From a virus: a stretch of DNA of 64,000 bases. Numbering within the stretch: position 1 is the stretch's first letter; each line of letters starts with the position of its first letter. The notes below the pieces were generated by a model. The model was not told the DNA's origin, did not search any database, and saw only the letters and a program-made list of their open reading frames with translations. A program made the position numbers and the translations under genes. Shown one piece after another: positions 35,563 to 44,253 of this stretch. The stretch is from the IMG/VR virus record IMGVR_UViG_3300042547_000432. The stretch is one strand, 5' to 3'.

Positions 35563-35720
35563 TGTGTTACCTCCTTGTTATTATTACAAGGGCGATACTC
35601 AACACCACGATATTTATTGGTTGGGTGAGCTGGTGCGTGAGTTTGCAAATACCAGCGTTGATATTCTTGCTTGGCGGTATCAGTATTATACTGACAACCA
35701 CGATAAGTTGCTTGTGACAT
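35559..35720 (-). CDS. DUF4278-like YRG peptide (53 aa, absent from ORF track)
   Basis: MSQATYRGCQY...NKYRGVEYRP: two YRG motifs; AAGGAG SD. Confidence 0.8.
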   Translation of the reverse strand: MSQATYRGCQYNTDTAKQEYQRWYLQTHAPAHPTNKYRGVEYRPCNNNKEVTQ

Positions 35721-35751
35721 TAGGTTTTCTCCTTAATGGTTTAGGTTAAAG

Positions 35752-35835
35752 AGCGTTCCTTCGGTCGTTTGCGTTCGCTATAGCGAATGAACGTTCCGTT
35801 CCGCGACTTACTTCCGTCCCATAGGGATGAACGTA
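35752..35835 (-). ncRNA. Glutamine riboswitch-like RNA (glnA / Downstream-peptide family)
   Basis: CGTTCA...GGAAGTAAG...CGAAGGAACG consensus elements directly upstream of a YRG peptide. Confidence 0.75.
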
Positions 35836-35875
35836 TTTTATATATGATATTGAGATTGTAACATTCAATACCAAA

Positions 35876-35950
35876 CACTCTCTGTAGGATTCGAACCTAC
35901 GACACCTTGATCCGTAGTCAAGTGCTCTATATCCACTGAGCTAAGAGAGT
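35876..35950 (-). tRNA. trnR: tRNA-Arg(ACG)
   Basis: Anticodon arm CTTGA-CTACGGA-TCAAG; T-loop TTCGAAT. Confidence 0.9.
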
Positions 35951-35951
35951 A

Positions 35952-36026
35952 GGCGAAGGGCCAGAGACTTGAACTCTGAACTTTGGTTTTGGAGACCAAG
36001 ATGTTACCAATTACACCAACCCAACA
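35952..36026 (-). tRNA. trnW: tRNA-Trp(CCA), weak acceptor stem
   Basis: TTGGT-CTCCAAA-ACCAA; acceptor TGTTGGG/CCCTTCG has two U-U mismatches. Confidence 0.7.
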
Positions 36027-36028
36027 CA

Positions 36029-36100
36029 TTCTGAGGGTAGGATTCGAACCCACGAATGGCGGGACCAAAACCCGCTGCCTTACCGCTTGGCGACCTCAGA
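36029..36100 (-). tRNA. trnQ: tRNA-Gln(TTG)
   Basis: GCGGG-TTTTGGT-CCCGC. Confidence 0.9.
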
Positions 36101-36172
36101 AGCCCTCAGTCGGATTTGAACCAACGACCTACTCATTACTAGTGAGTTGCTCTACCACTGAGCTATAGGGGC
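36101..36172 (-). tRNA. trnT: tRNA-Thr(AGT)
   Basis: ACTCA-CTAGTAA-TGAGT; canonical D and T arms. Confidence 0.85.
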
Positions 36173-36174
36173 GG

Positions 36175-36246
36175 GGTGTCGTGAGGGAATCGAACCCTCA
36201 TGTAGAGAACCACAATCTCCTGTCTTACCATTAGACTAACGACACA
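36175..36246 (-). tRNA. trnH: tRNA-His(GTG)
   Basis: GGAGA-TTGTGGT-TCTCT; C73 discriminator. Confidence 0.88.
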
Positions 36247-36247
36247 A

Positions 36248-36320
36248 GGCAGTAGGTAGATTTGAACTACCGACCATAGGAATATGAGACCCGTGCTCTG
36301 CCAGACTGAGCTATACTGCC
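36248..36320 (-). tRNA. tRNA-CAT (elongator Met or Ile2), imperfect anticodon stem
   Basis: CGGGT-CTCATAT-TCCTA; perfect acceptor GGCAGTA/TACTGCC. Confidence 0.7.
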
Positions 36321-36324
36321 AAGT

Positions 36325-36414
36325 TGGGAGAGGGTGGAATCGAACCACCATTGCCAATGAACGGAATCGAACCGTCTCTGATACCGTCGTACCCACCATC
36401 CAAGGTGCTCTCCC
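36325..36414 (-). ncRNA. tRNA-like RNA with two T-arms and no anticodon arm
   Basis: Acceptor GGGAGAG/CTCTCCC+A; GGTGG-TTCGATT-CCACC; internal ACGG-TTCGATT-CCGT. Confidence 0.65.
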
Positions 36415-36417
36415 AAG

Positions 36418-36489
36418 TGGAACCGACAAGATTTGAACTTGTGACCGCTCGGTTATCAGCCGAGTGCTCTACCACTGAGCTACGGTTCC
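36418..36489 (-). tRNA. trnI: tRNA-Ile(GAT)
   Basis: CTCGG-CTGATAA-CCGAG. Confidence 0.92.
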
Positions 36490-36493
36490 AAGG

Positions 36494-36566
36494 TCGAAGA
36501 GGGTGGAGTTGAACCACCGACACCATGTTCTTCAGACATGTGCTCTACCAACTGAGCTACTCCCCG
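36494..36566 (-). tRNA. trnF: tRNA-Phe(GAA)
   Basis: CATGT-CTGAAGA-ACATG. Confidence 0.88.
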
Positions 36567-36569
36567 AGA

Positions 36570-36643
36570 TAGTCCCAACGGGATTCGAACCCGTGTCTAC
36601 ACTGTGAAAGAGTGTTGTCCTAGGCCGACTAGACGATGGGACC
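36570..36643 (-). tRNA. trnE: tRNA-Glu(TTC)
   Basis: ACACT-CTTTCAC-AGTGT. Confidence 0.92.
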
Positions 36644-36645
36644 AG

Positions 36646-36742
36646 ATGGGAGGGGTATCCCACACGAAGTTGCTTACGGATTACGCTTCGTAGCCTTATG
36701 AATCCTGCCATCATCCGATGGTGGTTAGAAATCCCTCCCCAA
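36646..36742 (-). ncRNA. Putative structured RNA closed by a 7-bp acceptor-like stem
   Basis: GGGAGGG/CCCTCCC+A closing stem; internal CCATC/GATGG, GGATT/AATCC, ACGAAG/CTTCGT helices. Confidence 0.45.
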
Positions 36743-36821
36743 TTCCAGTTGTTGCTACAACATTTCTCTACACACTGGCAAACTCTAAGAAATGCGTGAG
36801 AGTTAGAATACTGACTCTCAA

Positions 36822-36895
36822 CGACCCATACGGGATTCGAACCCGTGATCTCCACCGTGACAGGGTGGCGTCATAGACCGCTAGACTAATGGGTC
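36822..36895 (-). tRNA. trnD: tRNA-Asp(GTC)
   Basis: CCACC-CTGTCAC-GGTGG. Confidence 0.92.
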
Positions 36896-36899
36896 AAGG

Positions 36900-36990
36900 T
36901 GAGAGAGGAGGGAATTGAACCCCCGATGGTTCTTATGTAACGGTTTTACAGACCGCAGCCACACGTATTGCCAACAGTAGCCACTCTCTC
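36900..36990 (-). tRNA. trnY: tRNA-Tyr(GTA) with enlarged D-arm
   Basis: GCGGT-CTGTAAA-ACCGT; acceptor GAGAGAG/CTCTCTC; D region GGCTACTGTTGGCAATACGTGTGGCT. Confidence 0.8.
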
Positions 36991-36993
36991 ATA

Positions 36994-37065
36994 TGGGTCT
37001 GGCGGGATTCGAACCCACAACTTGCTGGTTAAAAGCCAGTTACTCTACCGTTGAGTTACAGACCC
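36994..37065 (-). tRNA. trnK: tRNA-Lys(TTT)
   Basis: ACTGG-CTTTTAA-CCAGC. Confidence 0.92.
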
Positions 37066-37112
37066 AAGAGTTAAATTGTCAAGGTGCTGGTGGGTCTCCC
37101 ACCGATGTATCT

Positions 37113-37150
37113 ACAATAAAATAGGGGGGCGGTTTTGTCAACTGCCCCCC
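37113..37150 (-). promoter_or_regulatory. Sigma70 promoter for the main tRNA run, -35 inside a terminator-like hairpin
   Basis: TTGACA-17-TATTGT; GGGGGGCAG-TTGACAAAA-CCGCCCCCC then T-rich tail. Confidence 0.8.
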
Positions 37151-37181
37151 TGATAAATCTTGCTTATGTGTCAGATGTCGG

Positions 37182-37283
37182 TCATCGTTTCCACTTATGA
37201 GCAAGCACGGGGGCCTGAGCAATATGCCAATAACGGCAATCGCTTTCCATAAAAATCTCAATTTGCTTGCTGAAGTTAGTCAT
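37182..37283 (-). CDS. 33-aa peptide
   Basis: MTNFSKQIEIFMESDCRYWHIAQAPVLAHKWKR; TAAATA upstream. Confidence 0.4.
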   Translation of the reverse strand: MTNFSKQIEIFMESDCRYWHIAQAPVLAHKWKR

Positions 37284-37319
37284 GATGTTCGACCTTTAGT
37301 GTTTATTTATAAGAGTTTA

Positions 37320-37415
37320 GATGGAGTAAGCGTAATACACCTCAAGGATGTAACAGAGGCTTACCCTCTATCTCGCTACGGCATTCTGGATTATCAGCTC
37401 CAGCGCAAGTAGCAA
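37320..37415 (-). ncRNA. 96-nt structured tRNA-trailer element, copy 1 (after tRNA-Asn)
   Basis: 93/96 identical to 40924-41019; differences preserve pairing. Confidence 0.75.
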
Positions 37416-37488
37416 CTCCCCCACCTGGACTCGAACCAGGAACCCCAGAGTTAACAGCTCCGTGCTCTGCCAATTGAGCTATAAGGGA
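37416..37488 (-). tRNA. trnN: tRNA-Asn(GTT)
   Basis: CGGAG-CTGTTAA-CTCTG; G73. Confidence 0.9.
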
Positions 37489-37494
37489 ATGAAA

Positions 37495-37665
37495 TCAGGA
37501 TTGCTTACAATCCATCATGTATTCTACAGTATTTGCTATGTCATTCATAGCATCACGTAGATGTGGTTGTTGACCACTTTCTTGTCTAACCATTGGGCGA
37601 TGGTTATCGGTAAGAGACCAGCGCCATTGCTTTACAATAGCACAATACCATAGATTAATTTTCAT
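37495..37665 (-). CDS. Conserved small hypothetical protein (MKINLWYC...WRWSL)
   Basis: Start refined within the 94-aa ORF. Confidence 0.6.
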   Translation of the reverse strand: MKINLWYCAIVKQWRWSLTDNHRPMVRQESGQQPHLRDAMNDIANTVEYMMDCKQS

Positions 37666-37825
37666 GTTTGAAATATTCAAGTCTAATCCAGTTGAGAAGG
37701 GCATTGATTTCAAATGACGAATGATTTGGTGTGCCCAGATAATACTCAGTATTCTCTGCGTCGGCAACATATTTTTCAAGAGCTGCTATGGCAACTTCTC
37801 TGTCTCTTTGTGAAATAAGTGACAT
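37655..37825 (-). CDS. Small hypothetical protein (MSLISQRDREVAI...)
   Basis: GAGG SD upstream. Confidence 0.6.
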   Translation of the reverse strand: MSLISQRDREVAIAALEKYVADAENTEYYLGTPNHSSFEINALLNWIRLEYFKHEN

Positions 37826-37847
37826 GTTATTTATCCTCAAGGATAAG

Positions 37848-37919
37848 AGCGGGGTATCGGAATCGAACCGACGACATCTAACTTGGAAGGATAGCGTTCT
37901 ACCGCTGAACTAACCCCGC
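37848..37919 (-). tRNA. trnG: tRNA-Gly(TCC)
   Basis: CTATC-CTTCCAA-GTTAG; acceptor GCGGGGT/ACCCCGC; U73. Confidence 0.9.
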
Positions 37920-37920
37920 A

Positions 37921-38157
37921 GATGCTCTCTGCTACACTATGTATCTGCTACGATACCATGTAGTTTTGAGCAAACCCAACATATTGGGTTGCAATCTCCA
38001 GTTTTTCATGCCTTTGATTGCGTGATAGAGGCTTGATTGCGAAAGGCAATCTGTTTGAGCATATCATAACGACCGTGCCAATCTCGGACTAGGCTAACTT
38101 AATACTACCTGGCCAGATAGTTGGCGTCTTTCTAGGCTATCTGCCTAACGACTACCA
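37921..38157 (-). ncRNA. Putative 237-nt multi-hairpin RNA between tRNA-Leu and tRNA-Gly
   Basis: Hairpins at 37973-37990, 38035-38051, 38133-38147 and a loop-complementary segment at 38115-38120. Confidence 0.5.
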
Positions 38158-38158
38158 A

Positions 38159-38239
38159 TGTCGCTGAAAGGACTTGAACCTTCACGTTAAAAACACTGGA
38201 ACCTAAACCCAGCGCGTCTACCAATTCCGCCACAGCGAC
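38159..38239 (-). tRNA. trnL: tRNA-Leu(TAG)
   Basis: CTGGG-TTTAGGT-TCCAG; class II variable arm. Confidence 0.9.
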
Positions 38240-38243
38240 GTGG

Positions 38244-38317
38244 GGGCGGGAGTGGGATTTGAACCCACGACCTGCGGCTTATGAGACCGCTGAACTACCA
38301 GACTGTTCCATCCCGCG
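38244..38317 (-). tRNA. Initiator-like tRNA-Met(CAT)
   Basis: 5' CGCGGGA with unpaired C1; GCGGT-CTCATAA-GCCGC (third G-C pair of the initiator stem replaced by U-G). Confidence 0.8.
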
Positions 38318-38328
38318 TTGACCCCCAT

Positions 38329-38365
38329 ATTATATATGAGGGAAGTGGGGGTTGTCAATCCCCCC
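38329..38365 (-). promoter_or_regulatory. Sigma70 promoter, -35 inside G/C hairpin
   Basis: TTGACA-18-TATAAT; GGGGG-ATTGACAA-CCCCC. Confidence 0.7.
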
Positions 38366-38495
38366 GTTGCTCGGCTCGCCACCTGCCCTTTGACCAGAGG
38401 CAGGAAACTGGGCGGGAGTAACCCCATCCGCACCACCAGTTTTTGAGAGAAACTGGAAACTCATGAAGGGGGACTTCACCCGACCAGGGCAAGTT
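38365..38495 (-). ncRNA. Structured RNA with two repeated subunits, possibly manA-motif-like
   Basis: GTTTC-CAGTTT..AAAAACTG-GTGG and GTTTC-CTGCC..AAAGGGCAG-GTGG units; family name from memory, unverified. Confidence 0.55.
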
Positions 38496-38500
38496 TAGTG

Positions 38501-38695
38501 TCATTCCGAGACAGGTTGAGGAATCAAATCCTCGTATGCAGCTTCTACTGCTTTTTCAAAATCGTCGAAAGGTCCGTGGTTTACTTCATTATAGACATAA
38601 TAATATTTGTCTTCCACTTCCAAAACATCGAAGTAAGTAATAACTTCATCATCGTTGTCAAGTTTTTCAACAATTCTCATCTTAACAGGATTCAT
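38501..38695 (-). CDS. Hypothetical protein
   Basis: Start refined (MNPVKMRIVEK...). Confidence 0.5.
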   Translation of the reverse strand: MNPVKMRIVEKLDNDDEVITYFDVLEVEDKYYYVYNEVNHGPFDDFEKAVEAAYEDLIPQPVSE

Positions 38696-38705
38696 ACCTA
38701 AGCAT

Positions 38706-39071
38706 TCAAAGGGTAACATTGACTCCACCAGTACTGTTATAGTCCGTCCGTGACTCTGTATAATATGTATAAGGAGCAAATACATTCATATGCTCATTAA
38801 ACTTTACAGGAGTGCTGGCATACTTAAAATCATATTGTACTTTGCCATCTTCTCTTTTGGTTTTGTCAATAGAAATCAAACCTTCCACTGCGGAACCGCC
38901 CCTTTCTTTAGCAGCTGCTTCAATGCGCTCAGCAAACATCGTATTGTCAATTTCAATCAATGCTTTAGAAATCGCAGAGATTACATAAACACTTTCTTTA
39001 TCAGCAAACTTAAGTGCTGTGCGTAGAGCATCTTCTGCTCGCTCAAGTTGATACTTTACTGAGTCATTCAT
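38706..39071 (-). CDS. Hypothetical protein (MNDSVKYQLERAEDALR...)
   Basis: Start refined; overlaps upstream stop. Confidence 0.6.
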   Translation of the reverse strand: MNDSVKYQLERAEDALRTALKFADKESVYVISAISKALIEIDNTMFAERIEAAAKERGGSAVEGLISIDKTKREDGKVQYDFKYASTPVKFNEHMNVFAPYTYYTESRTDYNSTGGVNVTL

Positions 39072-39333
39072 CTTCATCATCGTCATCTCCTTTAATATAG
39101 CATGGAACTGTATCTGGGTCAAGCCACTTAGTATACTCAAAATCCTCAATCGCTGTCATAAACTGCATTTCGTTATCACAGAGATACATGTCACGGTAAC
39201 GACCAGTAAACGAACACATCTTCTGAATTCGATAATCTGGTTTGCCGTTAATCTCCAGGATGCCTGCTTGAACGTAGCGATAAGGGAAACGATCAAGAAT
39301 GGTCTTCACGCGGTTTGGGTTTGTTACACTCAT
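39064..39333 (-). CDS. Conserved cyanophage hypothetical protein
   Basis: DRFPYRYVQ.G.LEING.PDYRIQK...YLCDN.MQF. Confidence 0.7.
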   Translation of the reverse strand: MSVTNPNRVKTILDRFPYRYVQAGILEINGKPDYRIQKMCSFTGRYRDMYLCDNEMQFMTAIEDFEYTKWLDPDTVPCYIKGDDDDEDE

Positions 39334-39508
39334 TACAGTAGTAGGAGAATCCTGTGCGAAAGTATTTTACCACTTGGTAGTGGTCCTTGTCAAGGGGTTG
39401 CTCGGTGTGGCACTTGGAACAGATTCTAGTCCCACCACCAACAGAGATTTGTGAGCGTTGCGAGGAACTGTTCGTGATAGACTGTACGACTCGGATTGGG
39501 TTTACCAT
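39293..39508 (-). CDS. Small Zn-finger-like protein, start uncertain
   Basis: CSKC...CNEC; 83-nt overlap with upstream gene. Confidence 0.45.
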   Translation of the reverse strand: MVNPIRVVQSITNSSSQRSQISVGGGTRICSKCHTEQPLDKDHYQVVKYFRTGFSYYCNECNKPKPREDHS

Positions 39509-40013
39509 CTTTCATGTCTTGTAGATACTGGATTATACCACGAACTACTGGGGTGTCTTGGAAGTATTCGTGCATTCGGTAACAATCAAACTTCTCATTG
39601 TATTGAATGAAATCGTGAAGTGGATCCATGTTACGACGGTATCCCCAAATGAATACATCTTCATCTTTGATGCCATGTTTGTTGATGATTTCTAATGGAT
39701 AAAACTTTTGTCCATCTTCATCTTTCACAGCATCTTCTTCCCTTTCTTCTGTATCAAACTTGAAATGAAGACCATCATAATACTTTTCATGTAACTCTTC
39801 ATCTGGTGCTACACGAACTCGCTCATTCTTTGCCATGATATATTCCATGCGACCTTTGGCATCCTCGTTAGTCAAACGGAATACAATATTGCCAATGTAG
39901 TAATGTACGGGACCACCATAGAGGTGAGAAGATTCCCGTCTCCTGAATGATAGATGAGTAATCTCAAATCCAGGGTCTTCGTGTTCAGTTTCAACTAATC
40001 CTTGTGAAATCAT
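39426..40013 (-). CDS. Conserved cyanophage hypothetical protein
   Basis: 195 aa ending LCWWWD. Confidence 0.7.
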   Translation of the reverse strand: MISQGLVETEHEDPGFEITHLSFRRRESSHLYGGPVHYYIGNIVFRLTNEDAKGRMEYIMAKNERVRVAPDEELHEKYYDGLHFKFDTEEREEDAVKDEDGQKFYPLEIINKHGIKDEDVFIWGYRRNMDPLHDFIQYNEKFDCYRMHEYFQDTPVVRGIIQYLQDMKDGKPNPSRTVYHEQFLATLTNLCWWWD

Positions 40014-40213
40014 AGTTCAAAATTGTCGAGGTCTTTACCAGATTTGATATGCTGCTTGCGAAGTTTTTTTAGTTCCTTCATCATGTCTTTAATCTCTTTG
40101 TATGCTTCATCAGCATTCATTTTACCACCAACTTCTAAACCAACGATAAGTTCTACTTTGTCACCGAATCTAGCAAGGGCTCGCTCAAATTCAGTAAGTG
40201 TTTCGTAACCCAT
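40010..40213 (-). CDS. Conserved small hypothetical protein
   Basis: FERALARFGDKVE...EVGGKM.A.EAYKEIK. Confidence 0.65.
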   Translation of the reverse strand: MGYETLTEFERALARFGDKVELIVGLEVGGKMNADEAYKEIKDMMKELKKLRKQHIKSGKDLDNFEL

Positions 40214-40237
40214 AATAACCTCATGTGTTTGTTTATA

Positions 40238-40330
40238 TAGGGGCGGAGGGACTCGAACCCCCAACCGCACGGTAATCTGCCGTATACGAAAGGTATAAGC
40301 TTTCCGCTCTGCCAATTGAGCTACACCCCC
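40238..40330 (-). tRNA. trnI: tRNA-Ile(TAT) with long variable arm
   Basis: GAAAG-CTTATAC-CTTTC; variable region GTATACGGCAGATTACCGTGCGGTT; A73. Confidence 0.75.
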
Positions 40331-40337
40331 GTAAATA

Positions 40338-40410
40338 TGGAGAATAGCGGACTCGAACCGCTGACATTCGCCTTGCAAAGGCGCTACTCTACCAACTGAG
40401 TTAATTCCCC
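40338..40410 (-). tRNA. trnA: tRNA-Ala(TGC)
   Basis: GCGCC-TTTGCAA-GGCGA; G3-U70. Confidence 0.92.
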
Positions 40411-40557
40411 TTGTATTCGCTCATAGTATGAATATGGAAGAAGCATAACATCAGAACCATTAGCAGTCGTAATAATAAAACTTTCTTTATTGAGCATCAC
40501 AGCATCCATAATCTCATCAAAGTCGTGGCAAAAAGTTTCTTCTGTAATCGTTTTCAT
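40384..40557 (-). CDS. Phd/YefM antitoxin-like protein
   Basis: MKTITEETFCHDFDEIMDAV...ESFIIT.ANG.DVMLLPY fits the Phd N-terminal pattern. Confidence 0.6.
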   Translation of the reverse strand: MKTITEETFCHDFDEIMDAVMLNKESFIITTANGSDVMLLPYSYYERIQGELTQLVE

Positions 40558-40826
40558 ACCATACACTCCATGTCTTTTTCTTCTTGTAGGCAACCGATAC
40601 TAGTTAAATATTCGATGGTTTCATTACATCCTCCCATCAGATGACCATCAAGAGTCACACGAGGAAAAGTAGCACCTTCACCAAACTTATTATAGAATGC
40701 TTCCCTATTGAAGTCAACATCCAGTTTATACTGCGTGTATTTGACAGTAAAACTATCAAGGATGACCTTGAGCTTACGACAATATTCACAGTTATCTCTT
40801 GTGTAAATAACCAGTTGCGAAATCAT
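40554..40826 (-). CDS. Glutaredoxin
   Basis: YTRDNCEYC; ATFPRV...LMGGC. Confidence 0.9.
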   Translation of the reverse strand: MISQLVIYTRDNCEYCRKLKVILDSFTVKYTQYKLDVDFNREAFYNKFGEGATFPRVTLDGHLMGGCNETIEYLTSIGCLQEEKDMECMV

Positions 40827-40847
40827 TAATGTCTCCTAAAAGAAGAA

Positions 40848-40921
40848 TCGGCGTGGCAGGATTTGAACCTGCGACCTTCTGCTCCCAAAGCAGTTGCGCT
40901 ACCAAGCTGCGCTACACACCG
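40848..40921 (-). tRNA. trnP: tRNA-Pro(TGG)
   Basis: ACTGC-TTTGGGA-GCAGA. Confidence 0.92.
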
Positions 40922-40923
40922 TT

Positions 40924-41019
40924 GATGGAGTAAGCGTAATATACCTCAAGGATATAACAGAGGCTTACCCTCTATCTTGCTACGGCATTCTGGATTATCA
41001 GCTCCAGCGCAAGTAGCAA
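40924..41019 (-). ncRNA. 96-nt structured tRNA-trailer element, copy 2 (after tRNA-Ser-TGA)
   Basis: 93/96 identical to 37320-37415. Confidence 0.75.
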
Positions 41020-41104
41020 CGGAAGTGGTAGGATTCGAACCCACGATGGCTTTCACCATGCTTGTTTTCAAGACAAGTTCCTTCAACCACTCGGACACAC
41101 TTCC
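41020..41104 (-). tRNA. trnS: tRNA-Ser(TGA)
   Basis: CTTGT-CTTGAAA-ACAAG; long variable arm; G73. Confidence 0.92.
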
Positions 41105-41119
41105 ATTTGTTGACCTCCA

Positions 41120-41157
41120 TATTATATAGGAGGTCTGGGGGGTCTGTCAACCCCCCA
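41120..41157 (-). promoter_or_regulatory. Sigma70 promoter, -35 inside G/C hairpin
   Basis: TGGGGGG-TTGACAGA-CCCCCCA; TATATAAT downstream. Confidence 0.7.
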
Positions 41158-41163
41158 CGGTCA

Positions 41164-42042
41164 TCAGAATTTGATGCCGAGACCCGTGGTAAACACAGGC
41201 GAGTAGGTGCCGTTGGTAGCACCGTAGCTGTTAGCAGCGTTGGTGGTAGGGAATTTCAGATCAGCAAAACCAACGAGGGAGTTGGTGATACGACCTTCAA
41301 GACCAATAGCAAGCACAGCTTGTCCACGATTACCAACTGCCGATTGGAAGTTAGCATCAGAGTTGTTAACAAAAGGCACTTGATAACCAGCAGCAGCATA
41401 GATGTTAGCGGCGCTTACACCTGCCTTGCGAGCGATAGACCAGTCATAAGAGACGAGAGCACCACCAGCAGTGCCAATGTTGCCAGAGGGACCAGCAACG
41501 GCATTCAGATAAGGACGAATAGACACAGCATTCTGGTTGCTGAAGTTTTTCACAGCATAGCGAGCCTGGAGGGTAGCACCACCCACAGTCTTCTGAGCGG
41601 TCTGACCAGCACCAGCAACGCCTTGCTGATTCAGCAGCACACCGAGACCAACGTAGTTGCCAACGCCCTGTGCCTTGCGAGCAGCAGCGACCTCAAGGGC
41701 GCTCACGCGGGTGTTGGTAGCAGCAATCTCCTTAGCAAACTGAGCGCGTAGAGCAGCAGCCAGAGCAGCGTCAGCGGCGCTCTGATACTCGCTGATACGG
41801 TCAAGGCAAGCGTTAGTGAGAGCGGCGAGCTCAGCACGAGAAGCAGGTTCACCAGGCTTGAAAGTGCCGTTAGGATAACCAGCGACACAACCGTAACGAG
41901 AGATCAGGTTAGAGATAGCTTGATAAGACCAGTCAGTAGGTTGGACATCTTTCAGTTGAGTCACACTGGTAACTTGTGCCATGGCAGGAGCAGCAATAGA
42001 AGCAGCAGCAACACCAGCAGCAATAAATGAACGAATCATCAT
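41164..42042 (-). CDS. SLH-domain outer-membrane protein (cyanobacterial Som/porin-like N-terminus, short beta-barrel)
   Basis: Signal peptide; DVQPTDWSYQAISNLISRYGCVAGYPNGTF; coiled coil; alternating beta strands; terminal Phe. Confidence 0.8.
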   Translation of the reverse strand: MMIRSFIAAGVAAASIAAPAMAQVTSVTQLKDVQPTDWSYQAISNLISRYGCVAGYPNGTFKPGEPASRAELAALTNACLDRISEYQSAADAALAAALRAQFAKEIAATNTRVSALEVAAARKAQGVGNYVGLGVLLNQQGVAGAGQTAQKTVGGATLQARYAVKNFSNQNAVSIRPYLNAVAGPSGNIGTAGGALVSYDWSIARKAGVSAANIYAAAGYQVPFVNNSDANFQSAVGNRGQAVLAIGLEGRITNSLVGFADLKFPTTNAANSYGATNGTYSPVFTTGLGIKF

Positions 42043-42086
42043 AGTTTCTTAATGTTTAAACGACATGTCATGCCCGTAATGGGCAA

Positions 42087-42175
42087 CGGAAGTGGTTGGA
42101 TTCGAACCAACGGATGCCCATAAAGACATCGGCGGTTTAGCAAACCGCTGCTTTAGACCTCTCAGCCACACTTCC
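42087..42175 (-). tRNA. trnS: tRNA-Ser(GCT)
   Basis: GCGGT-TTGCTAA-ACCGC; long variable arm. Confidence 0.92.
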
Positions 42176-42177
42176 AA

Positions 42178-42525
42178 TCACTCAATCACTTCAACATCAA
42201 CTTGGTCAATTGATTCATCGAAGTCTTGAACAAACTCGGATGGAGAGAGATCAACAAATTCTTGTTTTAATTTTCTTTCTTCAATTTCTTTTGCTGCTTT
42301 ATCAATCGCATCCCAATCAGGAGCAGATTTCAATTCAACAACATCTGGAAGGGCAGAAGAATATTCTACCACTTCCATGTTGTTTCCACTGTCAACAATT
42401 TTTTGTGGATCTTCTTTGTTGTCAAATTGTTGAGCTTCTTCGATATTAGTTGACCACAATTTTCCTGGTTCGGTATTACCAGTCCAGTATCCATTATAAC
42501 CAACAACACGAACAATATATGTCAT
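42178..42525 (-). CDS. Acidic hypothetical protein (paralog of 42542..42832)
   Basis: MTYIVRV...YWTGN...EEAQQF. Confidence 0.6.
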   Translation of the reverse strand: MTYIVRVVGYNGYWTGNTEPGKLWSTNIEEAQQFDNKEDPQKIVDSGNNMEVVEYSSALPDVVELKSAPDWDAIDKAAKEIEERKLKQEFVDLSPSEFVQDFDESIDQVDVEVIE

Positions 42526-42541
42526 AATAAATTCCTCCAAA

Positions 42542-42832
42542 TCAAGAAGCTAGTTTTCTTAGATCTTCTACTGATAGTGGTGATTCTTCTACCACAGTTT
42601 CTTCAGATACTTCTTCTGTTTCTACTACAGGAAGTTCTACCGAGAGAGCATCCTCAGACTTTACCGCATTAAGAGTCGAATATCCATGAGACTCAGCAAT
42701 TTCCTTGAGTTCTTTTTCTGCTTCTTTCTTGGTAGCGTACTCTTTTGCTTCCGCAGCTTGATTTACAAAAACAGCTTCTGGATTGCCAGACCAGTAAGTT
42801 GGGTTTTCTCCTACTCTAATTAGATAAGCCAT
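42542..42832 (-). CDS. Acidic hypothetical protein
   Basis: MAYLIRV...YWSGN...AEAKEY. Confidence 0.6.
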   Translation of the reverse strand: MAYLIRVGENPTYWSGNPEAVFVNQAAEAKEYATKKEAEKELKEIAESHGYSTLNAVKSEDALSVELPVVETEEVSEETVVEESPLSVEDLRKLAS

Positions 42833-42876
42833 ATTTTTATTTAAACAATACGTTTATTCTATCCTATTTATACCAA

Positions 42877-43134
42877 TCAACGAATTTCAAAATCCAATTT
42901 CCTTGGTATCCTTTTAGTATAACCTGATGCCAAAGGAATGTCAAGCTTCTTTTCTTTCGGTTTTCCGATCCCATCAATAGCAGTTACTAATGAAAGGTCG
43001 TTGCCTGTAATGATAGGAAGACCATTCCTATCTAGCCTCAAAAGCGTATGATTATCACAACCACACGCTTTACTTTTATTTGCTTGGTATACTTCTATCT
43101 CTACGCCACATGCGTTACATCTTATCTTTGCCAT
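42877..43134 (-). CDS. Zn-binding hypothetical protein
   Basis: CNACG...CGCDN. Confidence 0.6.
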   Translation of the reverse strand: MAKIRCNACGVEIEVYQANKSKACGCDNHTLLRLDRNGLPIITGNDLSLVTAIDGIGKPKEKKLDIPLASGYTKRIPRKLDFEIR

Positions 43135-43342
43135 TTTCTTTTAACCATTCCATCATTTCTTTTTGCATTTTCTTTGATTCCTTATCAAGTTGTCGTTTCA
43201 TATTCCTTGCCATGTTCCAACGAATGAAGTTAATATGGAGTAATTTTAATCTAAGATTAATATACTCTGGAACATTTGGATCCTGCCATATGATATAAAT
43301 CATGGCACAGATTAGTATTAAAGAAATATAATATGTATTCAT
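43115..43342 (-). CDS. Small membrane-anchored hypothetical protein
   Basis: N-terminal TM helix. Confidence 0.55.
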   Translation of the reverse strand: MNTYYISLILICAMIYIIWQDPNVPEYINLRLKLLHINFIRWNMARNMKRQLDKESKKMQKEMMEWLKENGKDKM

Positions 43343-43350
43343 AGTTTATA

Positions 43351-43422
43351 TGGGCGATACTGGAATCGAACCAGTGACAGCTTGCTTGTAAGGCAAGAGC
43401 TCTACCGCTGAGCTAATCGCCC
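43351..43422 (-). tRNA. trnV: tRNA-Val(TAC)
   Basis: CTTGC-CTTACAA-GCAAG. Confidence 0.92.
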
Positions 43423-43721
43423 TGCCTAAGTTCTACGTGAACTTCACGATGACAGTTAGCACAAAGTATAGCACATTTGTCTAGTTCTGTCATTATCTTT
43501 TCCCAACTCCAAAGACGCATCTTATTCCAAGCTGCTTCTTTTTGTGTAGGGTCGAGATGGTGGAACTCTAAAACCTCTGAGTATTTATCATACCCACAAC
43601 GTTCGCACTTTCCACCTTTGTATTCTACAGCATCAAGTTTGCGTTGTTGCCATCTTTGAATACAATACTGATTGAAAGATGATTTCTCATCTTCGGTCAT
43701 CAGTTTATAAGGTTTTCCCAT
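43413..43721 (-). mobile_element. Free-standing HNH endonuclease gene
   Basis: CERCG...LEFHH...KCAILCANCHREVH; lies between two tRNA genes. Confidence 0.8.
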
Positions 43722-43761
43722 TTGCTTAGACCAAATAATTCTAATCTATTTATACGGGAAA

Positions 43762-43833
43762 CAGGCTCACCTGGAATCGAACCAGGGACGACCGCTTAGA
43801 AGGCGGTAGTTATATCCGCTTAACTATGAGCCC
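43762..43833 (-). tRNA. trnR: tRNA-Arg(TCT)
   Basis: ACCGC-CTTCTAA-GCGGT. Confidence 0.92.
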
Positions 43834-43851
43834 GTGTGTAGGATTATTATA

Positions 43852-44253
43852 TCACTGCTGAGGGCAGTTGTCAAGCCATGGAGCACAGAGTCTCATTGGA
43901 GGGGCGAGTGCTTTACACTCATCACTGTAGCATAATGTTTCGTCATTTGCTTCTTCTATATAGCGTGGTTTGTATACTTCTGCTTTTGATAAACCAGATT
44001 GTCTCCAATAATCATTGATAGCATTGGTGACATCTCTTTCTACTCTACGTTTTACTTTGTCAGGGTCTTCAGTAATAACCCTGTTAATAGAAGTTTGTGG
44101 GAAATATTTTCTTTGAATCTCGTCAAATAAATCCCAAAGATTGTTTTCATGGATTCCTGTACATTGTGAAAGTGCTGCGATAATAGAAGATAATACTATA
44201 CTGGTTGTTATAATAGTTTTTTTAGAGGGCTTGCCAATGTGAAAGTTAAACAT
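43852..44253 (-). CDS. Exported/lipoprotein-like hypothetical protein
   Basis: Hydrophobic N-terminus ending ALSQC; Cys-rich C-terminus. Confidence 0.55.
   Translation of the reverse strand: MFNFHIGKPSKKTIITTSIVLSSIIAALSQCTGIHENNLWDLFDEIQRKYFPQTSINRVITEDPDKVKRRVERDVTNAINDYWRQSGLSKAEVYKPRYIEEANDETLCYSDECKALAPPMRLCAPWLDNCPQQ

Follow-up and report, generated by a model that had tools for sequence, protein, structure and literature searches.

The minus strand between positions 35875 and 43834 of the 64,000-nt stretch of phage DNA analyzed here (the window) carries 22 canonical tRNA genes, an atypical Tyr(GUA) tRNA and a tRNA-shaped RNA without an anticodon (Table 1), in a gene order shared with related IMG/VR contigs and with the Synechococcus phage S-CREM1. 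ARAGORN called 24 genes and Rfam 22 tRNAs, every one of them on the minus strand. We rejected the ARAGORN call Arg(gcg) at 36898-36990, whose anticodon loop reads CUGUAAA and which fills the Lys-Tyr-Asp slot held by tRNA-Tyr in relatives; this Tyr tRNA has an abnormal D region and scores below the Rfam tRNA level. We likewise rejected Ser(cga) at 36325-36398, a part of the tRNA-shaped RNA E4, which has no anticodon loop. Because the two extra calls are the odd Tyr tRNA and E4, the 23 genes for 19 amino acids counted in an earlier sequence-only reading are reproduced, provided that the Tyr tRNA is functional, and the array described there is real in both the ARAGORN and the Rfam tRNA sets. The lack of tRNA-Cys noted in that reading extends across the whole 85.7-kb contig, which has three further tRNAs beyond the window; Cys(gca) is present in the same cluster of the relatives L051 and L062. 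The further claim that no gene encodes a 3' CCA holds for the array except for tRNA-Met at 38241-38317, whose 3' end reads C-CCA. In the genes for Tyr, Phe, His and Trp the terminal NCC is followed by a base that is not A.

The array had been proposed to be polycistronic. It is not one polycistron, because three perfect and one weaker (10/12) sigma-70 promoters each lie just 5' of a tRNA, giving at least four promoter-driven units, and about 16 small ORFs are found between the tRNAs. The two PeSL-like modules are 81% identical, the hairpin around their -10 box covaries between the copies, and such a module also lies 5' of tRNA-Leu in L075. Known riboregulators are interleaved as well. A wcaG RNA lies about 50 nt 5' of tRNA-Met, with a G6-TTGACA-C5 hairpin/promoter module between the two; wcaG keeps this placement in 7/7 relatives scanned with Rfam and at 28 loci found by BLAST. 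A glutamine riboswitch follows the last tRNA after a 39-nt gap that is conserved in relatives, and precedes a small ORF starting at 35720; it lies just beyond the stretch that the earlier reading had delimited.

Table 1. Features of the tRNA array and its surroundings.
Feature	Position	Strand	Remarks
tRNA array	35875..43834	(-)	ARAGORN, Rfam
Array order, first half			Arg(UCU), Val(UAC), Ser(GCU), Ser(UGA), Pro(UGG), Ala(UGC), Ile(UAU, long variable arm), Met(CAU, C-CCA encoded), Leu(UAG), Gly(UCC), Asn(GUU), Lys(UUU)
Array order, second half			Tyr(GUA, atypical), Asp(GUC), Glu(UUC), Phe(GAA), Ile(GAU), [E4], Met/Ile2(CAU), His(GUG), Thr(AGU), Gln(UUG), Trp(CCA), Arg(ACG)
Sigma-70 promoter, perfect (12/12)	43846..43874	(-)	just 5' of tRNA-Arg(UCU)
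HNH endonuclease ORF	43413..43721	(-)	PF01844; phrog_2255, E 7e-28; between tRNA-Arg and tRNA-Val, stop codon overlaps tRNA-Val 5' end
PeSL-like module	41109..41156	(-)	G6/C6 hairpin with TTGACA, 18 nt, TATAAT (12/12) in second hairpin; just 5' of tRNA-Ser(UGA)
E1 copy B	40922..41018	(-)	exact fill of Ser(UGA)-Pro spacer
NrdC-like glutaredoxin ORF	40554-40826		PF00462, E 5e-10; beside Phd/YefM-like ORF
Orphan Phd/YefM-like antitoxin ORF	40384..40593	(-)	PF02604, E 1.3e-5, below curated cut-off
wcaG RNA (RF01761)	38368..38464	(-)	93.5 bits, cut-off 42
Second PeSL-like module (12/12)	38317..38364	(-)	just 5' of tRNA-Met
M38 hairpin, 38 nt, three helices	38121..38158	(-)	begins at first base past tRNA-Leu(UAG)
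E2 core	37920..38120	(-)	fills Leu-Gly spacer beyond M38
E2 hairpin CUAUCU/AGGUAG	38105-38120	(-)
E2 permuted abiF unit 1	38023-38067	(-)	AUGAUAU-GCUCAAACA-GAUUGC-loop-GCAAUC-AAGCCUCUAUCA
E2 second unit, more diverged	37920-37971	(-)	ends at tRNA-Gly
E1 copy A	37320..37415	(-)	begins at base after tRNA-Asn
Promoter-like site (10/12) in G6/C6 hairpin	37113..37141	(-)	5' of tRNA-Lys
E3	36645..36820	(-)	exact fill of Asp-Glu spacer
E4, tRNA-shaped RNA, 92 nt	36324..36415	(-)	between tRNA-Ile(GAU) and tRNA-Met
Glutamine riboswitch (RF01739)	35750..35835	(-)	41.9 bits, cut-off 35

Conserved RNAs at tRNA ends

The 23 tRNA genes share the array with six or more non-tRNA RNAs that are conserved and folded, so that the earlier claim of at least five structured RNAs flush with tRNA ends was correct and indeed understated. 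Spacers of 97 nt (Ser(tga)-Pro), 239 nt (Leu(tag)-Gly), 176 nt (Asp-Glu) and 92 nt (Ile-Met), and a 96-nt element after Asn, meet the tRNAs with gaps of -1 to 4 nt inside the window. Four families, namely the M38 hairpin, the E1 leader, E3 and the tRNA-like E4, have no Rfam counterpart. The number of viral contigs in which each recurs, with covariation, ranges from eight to over 118, and the position is mostly 0-9 nt from tRNA ends. For the E1 hairpin E1h2 a tRNA 5' end follows 3-9 nt downstream in 82/132 instances.

M38 is built of an outer stem that varies, a GUC/GAC or CUC/GAG middle stem and a UAGGC/GCCUA inner stem, with the loop AGAUA. Its core pattern, found in more than 118 viral contigs, begins 9-17 nt past a tRNA 3' end in 92 of the 94 instances having an upstream tRNA, and also occurs at 52 places without an upstream tRNA called by ARAGORN; in other viral contigs the core takes the anticodon-arm position of a tRNA-shaped RNA. 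Paired cells make up 95.3% of the M38 alignment and 9/14 pairs changed on both sides, with a covariation score of 0.363 against 0.121 in shuffles (reached by 0/500). Since the sequences compared are related, shuffle counts of this kind cannot be read as probabilities, and the search patterns for M38 and E1h2 themselves fixed parts of each element. E1 comprises E1h1, a hairpin with the loop GCUGAUAA, and E1h2, a 55-nt leader hairpin that in copy B stops 2 nt short of tRNA-Pro. More than 119 viral contigs contain the E1h2 pattern, with 99.4% of cells paired and GUAAGC/GCUUAC alternating with GUAAGU/ACUUAC in 11 sequences, but its instances are 92% identical to each other and therefore give little covariation to judge. 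Copy A matches copy B at 97% identity and differs from it by, among other things, a single compensatory change from C-G to U-A; what follows it is a 33-codon ORF and a promoter, not a tRNA.

E3 has a conserved core, GUUUGCCAGU ... AACUGGAAUUG, between two covarying helices, and each of its eight homologues lies 5' of tRNA-Glu or tRNA-Pro. As read by eye from the alignment, helix Pa varies among AUUUCU/AGAAAU, CAUCAUC/GAUGAUG and CCUUCC/GGAAAGG, and helix Pd between GGGGAGGG/CCCUCCCC and GGGAAGAAUA/UAUUCUUCC. In E4, an acceptor stem of 7-8 bp is joined by a D-like hairpin and two T-arm hairpins, and a short hairpin of loop GACG takes the place of the anticodon arm. Viral contigs contain seventeen distinct homologues, most with flanking tRNAs, and 97.4% of cells are paired; seven pairs changed on both sides and 3/5 pairs of the GACG hairpin covary. 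Rfam gives no tRNA match for E4, with tRNA-Sec at 21.5 bits against a cut-off of 47. Thus M38, E1h2, E4, P1 of E2 and the E3 helices are conserved and covary. Because these conserved, covarying RNAs lie exactly at tRNA ends, tRNA processing would define their ends.

A permuted abiF motif in E2

Judging from sequence comparison, E2 contains a circularly permuted form of the abiF motif (Rfam RF03085; AbiFr / RCd22), the antitoxin of the AbiF type III system, an assignment based on short conserved words and P1 covariation in 9-11 related sequences of one clade. When eleven homologues were aligned and folded, P1 covaried at columns 180:196 and 182:194, and P1 covariation is seen across nine distinct instances of the E2 unit. 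Computational de-permutation brings the unit into alignment with 18 canonical abiF motifs from phages, with which it shares UC-AAGCCU.U ... GCUCAAACA-GA; in unit 1 the words AAGCCU.U and GCUCAAACA abut the covarying P1 in the same register, in permuted order, and the GCU/AGC pairing (P2) and CAAAC bulge are also in common. E2 differs in that P1 is loop-capped and the P2 loop open, and because of this permutation the Rfam abiF model finds no match in the window. E2 also holds variable hairpins.

The canonical motif is present in S-CREM1 and in 5/5 related phage records, at 50.7-55.8 bits. Across viral contigs of relatives it lies 4-9 nt 5' of a tRNA in 41/42 cases, and in 28 cases that tRNA is tRNA-Gly(UCC), the same tRNA that E2 adjoins, so that the two occupy equivalent sites. 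Whereas the AbiF antitoxin RNA lies in a toxin-gene leader, E2 is fused to tRNAs, and no Abi_2 gene was found near E2, elsewhere on the contig or in five phage records with abiF, among them one of 88% completeness. Abi_2 occurs in 15-16 of the 301 genomes (~5%) sampled from the host-type family. In three of the five picocyanobacterial loci examined, an abiF-type RNA lies about 120 nt upstream of Abi_2, with the same loop hairpin insertion as one phage variant.

Discussion

The phage is best explained as an uncultivated T4-like cyanomyovirus of the Kyanoviridae, S-CREM1-like, and the region as its tRNA hyperplastic region. It is probably a freshwater-type cyanophage infecting freshwater or estuarine picocyanobacteria. 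The window has a GC content of 39.6%, compared with 65% at host-type loci, and 11/23 anticodons start with U. Thus, the tRNAs most likely offset this gap in codon usage, and the proposal that they replace damaged host tRNAs is the less economical one.

We favor, with confidence slightly better than even, a model in which codon-compensating tRNAs are made together with spacer RNAs that are released, at least E2 serving as an antitoxin mimic. Strong early-type sigma-70 promoters would drive several short units, each beginning with a tRNA or a leader RNA and co-transcribing the spacers, and the tRNAs would mainly supply anticodons for A/U-rich codons in a phage of 40% GC growing on a host of 65% GC. 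M38, E1, E2, E3 and E4 are discrete folded modules abutting tRNA ends rather than junk. Host RNase P would cut at each tRNA 5' end and RNase Z past the discriminator base of the tRNAs, most of which lack an encoded CCA, and these cuts would free the modules as stable small RNAs with defined ends, comparable to T4 RNAC and RNAD. M38, E1, E3 and E4 presumably have functions of their own.

For E2, the P1/P2 junction with its CAAAC bulge would form the structure that neutralizes the AbiF HEPN RNase. AbiF (Abi_2), the abortive-infection toxin of a type III toxin-antitoxin system, is on sequence grounds its most likely target. The abiF RNA is an antitoxin of AbiF for which the structure of the stem matters and its sequence does not (PMC12373285, PMC12737573). 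Most likely, as its motif suggests, at least E2 acts in trans as an antitoxin mimic or decoy, which would bind host AbiF and keep it inhibited during infection. The sequence-only reading had also proposed decoys against toxin defenses; since E2 appears to derive from a known RNA antitoxin, this idea gains a concrete target, while no anticodon-nuclease decoy is supported and no element could be tied to PrrC, RloC or PARIS-type nucleases. That interpretation is therefore supported in part, by the conserved spacers at tRNA ends and the antitoxin-derived E2, and not in its polycistron, anticodon nucleases or replacement tRNAs.

Alternatively, the spacers may act only in cis, as leaders and trailers with a guiding or protective part in tRNA maturation (entry sites for RNase P, RNase Z or RNase E, exonuclease blocks, or terminator/antiterminator elements, for instance), and are then degraded without a function of their own. 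It would make sense of M38 as a 3' trailer with few exceptions and of E1h2 as a 5' leader, of the AU-rich linker before many E1h2 copies, of the free exchange of modules among different tRNAs, and of the regulatory elements (wcaG and the hairpin/promoter modules) interleaved here. Nevertheless, host tRNA genes have no need of elements like these, E1 copy A has no tRNA after it, and E2, E3 and E4, at 90-240 nt with multiple helices and invariant single-stranded blocks, exceed what a processing signal needs; the abiF core, moreover, has a known antitoxin function in trans (PMC12373285). We regard a purely cis role as unlikely, though a serious contender.

Phage tRNAs are known to counter tRNA-cutting defenses (10.1101/2023.03.15.532788), a precedent for the idea that the tRNAs here replace ones cut by anticodon nucleases (PrrC, RloC, PARIS AriB, retron effectors), with E4, M38 and E1h1 as decoy substrates. 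E4 retains an acceptor stem and T arms without an anticodon, the E1h1 loop holds CUGAUAA, the 7-mer anticodon loop of the phage's own tRNA-Ile(GAU), and M38 has both its AGAUA loop and its occurrence at an anticodon-arm site to suggest it. These loop resemblances span few bases, however, the anticodon set fits codon compensation, and our analysis linked no such system to these phages or hosts, which leaves this idea improbable. More doubtful still, and in our judgment very improbable, is a reading of the modules as PeSL- or MITE-like DNA cassettes, selfish or recombinational, that move between the tRNA regions of phages and bring about shuffling, their hairpins being important as DNA and their RNA having no role. 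PeSL motifs do mediate shuffling in T4-like phages (PMC2839356, PMC4122927), the same modules appear in mosaic arrangement among related phages, E1h2 is near-identical over more than 119 contigs, and the array contains PeSL-like G6-loop-C6 modules with perfect promoters as well as an HNH endonuclease gene. Yet the modules strictly follow the orientation of the tRNAs and lie within a few bases of their ends, E2 is homologous to a functional RNA antitoxin, and the transcribed strand tolerates G-U pairs, which points to selection at the level of RNA.

Our preferred model of released RNAs has parallels in other phages. T4 RNAC and RNAD are cut from tRNA precursors. These species 1 and 2 RNAs are stable small RNAs with a function still unknown (PMC9697503); like the modules here they are non-tRNA RNAs that a T4-type phage encodes between its tRNAs, a likeness of kind with no sequence relation expected, whereas the present array has at least five families, some in more than 100 viral contigs. 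The tRNA regions of S-CREM1 (PMC9964418) share the order Lys-Tyr-Asp-[175-nt spacer]-Glu-Phe ... His-Gln-Trp-Arg, wcaG 5' of tRNA-Met, E3 and E4 homologues and orphan antitoxin genes, but have a manA RNA in the Leu-Asn spacer and a canonical abiF 5' of tRNA-Gly in place of M38 and E2. In the published annotation the RNAs are cis-regulators and the E3 and E4 homologues are unannotated (PMC9964418). The PeSL cassettes of T4-like phages (PMC2839356, PMC4122927) resemble our modules in a G-run/loop/C-run hairpin with a near-perfect TTGACA-N17/18-TATAAT, repeated in the hyperplastic region; here, by contrast, the modules lie directly 5' of tRNAs, the -35 box is in the hairpin loop and the -10 box is enclosed by a second hairpin, which covaries.

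Phage PhiTE encodes pseudo-ToxI, which mimics the antitoxin RNA of a type III system. By analogy, E2 may be a toxin-less phage copy of an RNA antitoxin that would neutralize a host abortive-infection RNase, the toxin being ToxN in that case and AbiF for E2. An orphan Phd-like antitoxin ORF in the same array also speaks for the favored model.

Conserved RNA elements between the tRNA genes

Codon usage is the usual sole explanation for large phage tRNA arrays, and the inter-tRNA DNA is disregarded. In the array studied here, this DNA contains four RNA families that are absent from Rfam, with occurrences ranging from eight viral contigs to more than 118, as well as a rearranged version of the RNA that acts as AbiF's antitoxin. 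The structured spacer RNAs proposed by the sequence-only reading proved to be conserved and covarying, as seen in the counts for M38, E1h2 (the 3' half of E1) and E4 and in helix P1 of E2.

RNA features in and beside the tRNA array (positions in the window)
Feature	Position	Strand	Description
tRNA-Ile(UAU)	40238-40330	-	93 nt; long stem-forming variable arm; Rfam 54.8 bits
E1, two copies	40922-41018 and 37320-37415	-	97% identical, differing by one compensatory pair
wcaG RNA (RF01761)	38368-38464	-	93.5 bits; gathering score 42
M38, three-helix hairpin	38121-38158	-	begins at first base past tRNA-Leu
E2	37920-38120	-	directly 5' of tRNA-Gly; eleven homologues
Tyr(GUA)-like tRNA	36898-36990	-	ARAGORN label Arg(gcg); anticodon loop CUGUAAA; below Rfam tRNA score
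E3	36645-36820	-	fills Asp-Glu spacer
E4, tRNA-shaped RNA	36324-36415	-	partly called Ser(cga) by ARAGORN; without anticodon loop
Glutamine riboswitch (RF01739)	35750-35835	-	41.9 bits; gathering score 35; small ORF from 35720

The core pattern of M38 was found in more than 118 viral contigs, and in 92 of the 94 instances that have an upstream tRNA it lies 9-17 nt past the tRNA 3' end, with twelve tRNA species represented; 52 further copies sit in other settings. As for all of the spacer RNAs, the M38 alignment is of related sequences, in part chosen by pattern: across 29 distinct sequences, 95.3% of cells are paired and 9 of 14 pairs show changes on both sides, with a covariation score of 0.363 against 0.121 in shuffles (0 of 500 reach the observed score) and at most 0.118 with partners slid. 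In six other loci (L138, L139, L145, L161, L162, L176), an E1h2-like element of diverged sequence (GAUAGAGGUGCAGUC...) comes directly after M38, and no upstream tRNA is called by ARAGORN.

E1h2 is present in more than 119 viral contigs; a tRNA 5' end follows 3-9 nt downstream in 82 of 132 instances, and another tRNA lies 21-60 nt upstream in 86. Pairing holds in 99.4% of cells and the closing pair shows C-G/U-A alternation in 11 sequences, covariation being limited because the instances are 92% identical. In the 5' half of E1, the outer stem reads UGCUAC/GUAGCA in the window and CUAUCA/UGAUAG in two related loci (L031, L033). Some E1h2 loops contain a hammerhead-like CUGAUGAG, which was dropped as not conserved. 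E3 has eight homologues, every one 5' of tRNA-Glu or tRNA-Pro, and two of its helices, as read from the alignment without a formal count, vary in sequence yet remain complementary; an invariant GCCAGU in one hairpin loop could pair with an invariant downstream ACUGG.

E4 combines a 7-8 bp acceptor stem, a D-like hairpin, a GACG-loop hairpin replacing the anticodon arm and two T-arm hairpins, and fails the Rfam tRNA (RF00005) score. Most of its seventeen distinct homologues have tRNAs a few bases away on their flanks, and one stands behind a canonical abiF motif in the exact position of a tRNA. With 97.4% of cells paired, 7 pairs changed on both sides and 3 of 5 pairs covarying in the GACG hairpin, the alignment indicates that E4 is under selection for structure. 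A decaying pseudogene is excluded by the compensatory changes in the acceptor stem and GACG hairpin. We also rejected tRNA-Sec, YrlA and tmRNA as identities for E4, all scores being below threshold: the tRNA-Sec model reaches 21.5 bits over E4 (gathering score 47), and the YrlA matches (at most 28.7 bits; gathering score 69) fall on ordinary tRNAs.

A permuted abiF RNA beside tRNA-Gly

In the type III toxin-antitoxin, or abortive-infection, system whose toxin is the AbiF HEPN RNase, the abiF motif (RF03085) serves as RNA antitoxin, and neutralization depends on the structure of the abiF stem rather than on its sequence (PMC12373285, PMC12737573). E2 shares with abiF its core words and an in-register P1 helix, and differs in their circularly permuted order. 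The linear order in the covariance model is P1 5' strand, AAGCC, loop, GCUCAAA, P1 3' strand; E2 carries these words as GCUCAAACA, GAUUGC-loop-GCAAUC, AAGCCUCUAUCA, with a loop capping P1 and the loop of the second helix, P2, left open. With E values of up to 5 allowed, canonical abiF has no match in the window, and the best abiF score on the whole contig, 10.5 bits, falls elsewhere; in its permuted arrangement E2 cannot be seen by the Rfam abiF model. Computational de-permutation allowed nine distinct E2 units to be aligned with 18 canonical phage motifs, and the alignment takes in the UC...GA pairs that close P1. P1 complementarity is kept in all nine variants and its inner pairs covary, so that abiF core words and a covarying P1 abut in register.

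The eleven E2 homologues have common invariant blocks with variable hairpins between them, and a second, more diverged permuted unit lies at 37920-37971. Scanning IMG/VR for the permuted words without the P1 requirement gave 44 matches, mostly chance occurrences in coding DNA, and genuine E2 copies were restricted to one clade. In two related loci, a weak tRNA (35-39 bits) sits mid-E2, straight after the permuted unit (L019:11757-11827, L030:12077-12140); ARAGORN labels the former His(atg), an odd call that it also makes in several other loci.

Canonical abiF was found in five of five related phage records (50.7-55.8 bits), and Rfam places it 4 nt 5' of tRNA-Gly in Synechococcus phage S-CREM1. 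A pattern scan of 330 viral loci returned 42 canonical copies in 42 loci; all but one of these lie 4-9 nt 5' of a tRNA, which is tRNA-Gly(UCC) in 28 of the 41. E2 adjoins this same tRNA, tRNA-Gly. The Leu-Asn spacer of S-CREM1 is filled by a manA RNA (96.6 bits). We rejected manA as the identity of the Leu-Gly spacer, which has no Rfam match: the S-CREM1 manA does not align with E2, and manA (RF01745; gathering score 55.2 bits) has no match in the window or contig.

AbiF is a proposed ancestor of Cas13. Its toxin domain, Abi_2 (PF07751), has no match on the contig or in the five abiF-bearing phage records, and a complete phage-borne toxin-antitoxin pair was rejected, the toxin gene being found neither on the contig nor in these relatives. 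On the host side, Abi_2 occurs in 15-16 of 301 genomes of the host-type family, and an abiF-type RNA lies about 120 nt upstream of the Abi_2 gene in three of the five picocyanobacterial loci examined; this host RNA has a hairpin inserted in its loop, as does one phage variant. For a lytic phage that carries an antitoxin RNA but no toxin, the simplest reading of that RNA would be a decoy.

Known RNA families, promoters and interleaved genes

The wcaG RNA was found in all seven relatives scanned (93.6-102.6 bits), about 50 nt 5' of tRNA-Met or tRNA-Leu. The published view of wcaG is that of a 5' UTR riboswitch candidate. In every relative examined, as in the window (38318-38464 (-)), it precedes a hairpin/promoter module and tRNA genes and not a protein gene, and because of what comes next, its placement does not fit the 5' UTR riboswitch reading. 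The glutamine riboswitch stands 39 nt past the last tRNA, a gap that is kept in relatives.

The earlier proposal that the array is a single polycistron does not hold, as there are several promoters, each directly 5' of a tRNA. Perfect TTGACA-N17/18-TATAAT promoters stand directly 5' of tRNA-Arg(UCU), tRNA-Ser(UGA) and tRNA-Met, with a promoter-like site (10/12) 5' of tRNA-Lys. Two of the perfect (12/12) promoters, at 41150-41121 and 38358-38329, belong to a 48-nt module present in two copies (repeat family D12), whose G6/C6 hairpin carries the -35 box in its loop and whose second hairpin encloses the -10 box. With the PeSL promoter/stem-loop cassettes described in T4-like phages (PMC2839356, PMC4122927), this module shares a G-run/C-run stem-loop joined to a near-consensus sigma-70 promoter and its repetition in a variable region. 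Between E1 copy A and tRNA-Lys, 37067-37283 (-) holds a predicted 33-codon ORF, a G6/C6 hairpin and a promoter-like site, and is retained at 73-96% identity in five relatives.

About 16 small ORFs lie between the tRNAs, among them an HNH endonuclease, a glutaredoxin, a Phd/YefM-like orphan antitoxin and a porin-like protein. The HNH ORF (43413-43721 (-)) stands between two tRNAs with its stop codon overlapping tRNA-Val, reminiscent of SegB, a homing endonuclease encoded in the tRNA region of T4. The Phd/YefM-like ORF (40384-40593 (-)) has no toxin partner; three orphan antitoxins have reportedly been noted in S-CREM1.

tRNA genes and likely host

Together, ARAGORN (24 tRNA genes) and Rfam (22 tRNAs) reproduce the earlier count of 23 tRNAs for 19 amino acids, all on the (-) strand at 35875-43834, when the Tyr(GUA)-like gene is counted and E4 excluded. 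The 22 Rfam tRNAs score 45.3-77.7 bits (gathering score 29). As claimed, Cys is absent, with no tRNA-Cys anywhere in the 85.7-kb contig, which has 3 more tRNAs beyond the window; Cys(gca) is present in the same cluster of 2 relatives. The statement that no gene encodes CCA applies to every gene except tRNA-Met (38241-38317), which ends in C-CCA; four further genes end in NCC. The Tyr(GUA)-like gene, with its enlarged, non-canonical D region, occupies the Lys-Tyr-Asp slot where relatives have tRNA-Tyr. Near-identical copies occur in L015 and L036, and an ordinary 82-nt tRNA-Tyr in the same place in L014 and S-CREM1. About 15 related loci share the long-armed tRNA-Ile(UAU), with 86-100% identity.

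With a mid-array protein (39426-40013) as query, we retrieved 64 related viral loci, many of which follow the order Arg-Val...Ser...Ser-[spacer]-Pro...Ala-Ile(UAU)...wcaG-Met-Leu-[spacer]-Gly and then Asn...Lys-Tyr-Asp-[spacer]-Glu-Phe-Ile...Arg(ACG)-glutamine riboswitch, with spacers that are mosaics drawn from a small set of modules.

The IMG/VR contig is about 45% complete, and its nearest cultured relative across the array stretch is S-CREM1, a T4-like cyanomyovirus of the Kyanoviridae. The porin-like ORF (41164-42042 (-)) has an SLH-domain N-terminus that shares 55-60% identity with porins from Cyanobium, Synechococcus lacustris and Vulcanococcus, and because this domain resembles picocyanobacterial porins, the host is probably a freshwater or estuarine picocyanobacterium. 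The ORF is GC-rich with host-like codons, and the full protein is 83% identical to one from a contig binned as Acidimicrobiaceae that is probably phage DNA. GC content is 39.6% in the window versus 65% in host-type loci, and U is the first anticodon base in 11 of the 23 array tRNAs; the array tRNAs fit codon compensation in a 40% GC phage with likely 65% GC hosts.

Possible release and roles of the spacer RNAs

Building on the genes, promoters, conservation, covariation and adjacency to tRNA ends that our analysis establishes, we infer that each unit would be transcribed from its own promoter, that RNase P would cleave at tRNA 5' ends and RNase Z past the discriminator of CCA-less tRNAs, and that these cuts would release the spacer modules with defined ends. 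T4 releases RNAC and RNAD from tRNA precursors in this way, and a comparable release is suggested here by the flush position of the modules. The function of RNAC and RNAD is still unknown (PMC9697503). In the literature searched, we found no earlier description of tRNA-flanking motifs in cyanophages.

It is conceivable, though in our judgment unlikely, that cyanophage tRNA arrays are delivery platforms for anti-defense RNA decoys, namely AbiF-antitoxin, anticodon-arm and tRNA mimics excised by RNase P and RNase Z. The toolbox would then comprise canonical or permuted AbiF-antitoxin mimics, M38 and E1h1 (the 5' half of E1) as anticodon-arm mimics with GAUA-type loops, and E4 as a two-T-arm tRNA mimic; each RNA would be excised with exact ends by RNase P and RNase Z of the host, and the tRNA genes would serve as punctuation and translation aids. 

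Should the spacer RNAs be released as predicted, phages would have in tRNA processing a general route to small RNAs with exact ends, among them antitoxin mimics that lack a toxin and counter abortive infection. Such a role, if true, would provide a first clue to the function of the abiF RNA annotated in S-CREM1 and a reason for the clustering of wcaG, manA and abiF RNAs with tRNAs in cyanophages.

In other viral loci, the M38 core, UAGGC-AGAUA-GCCUA, is found at the anticodon-arm position of tRNA-shaped RNAs uncalled by ARAGORN (L131, L141, L152, L167, L171), and a second, unrelated two-T-arm RNA family, with hairpins 17-19 nt apart, is present in further viral contigs (such as L500, L502, L505, L423 and L472).
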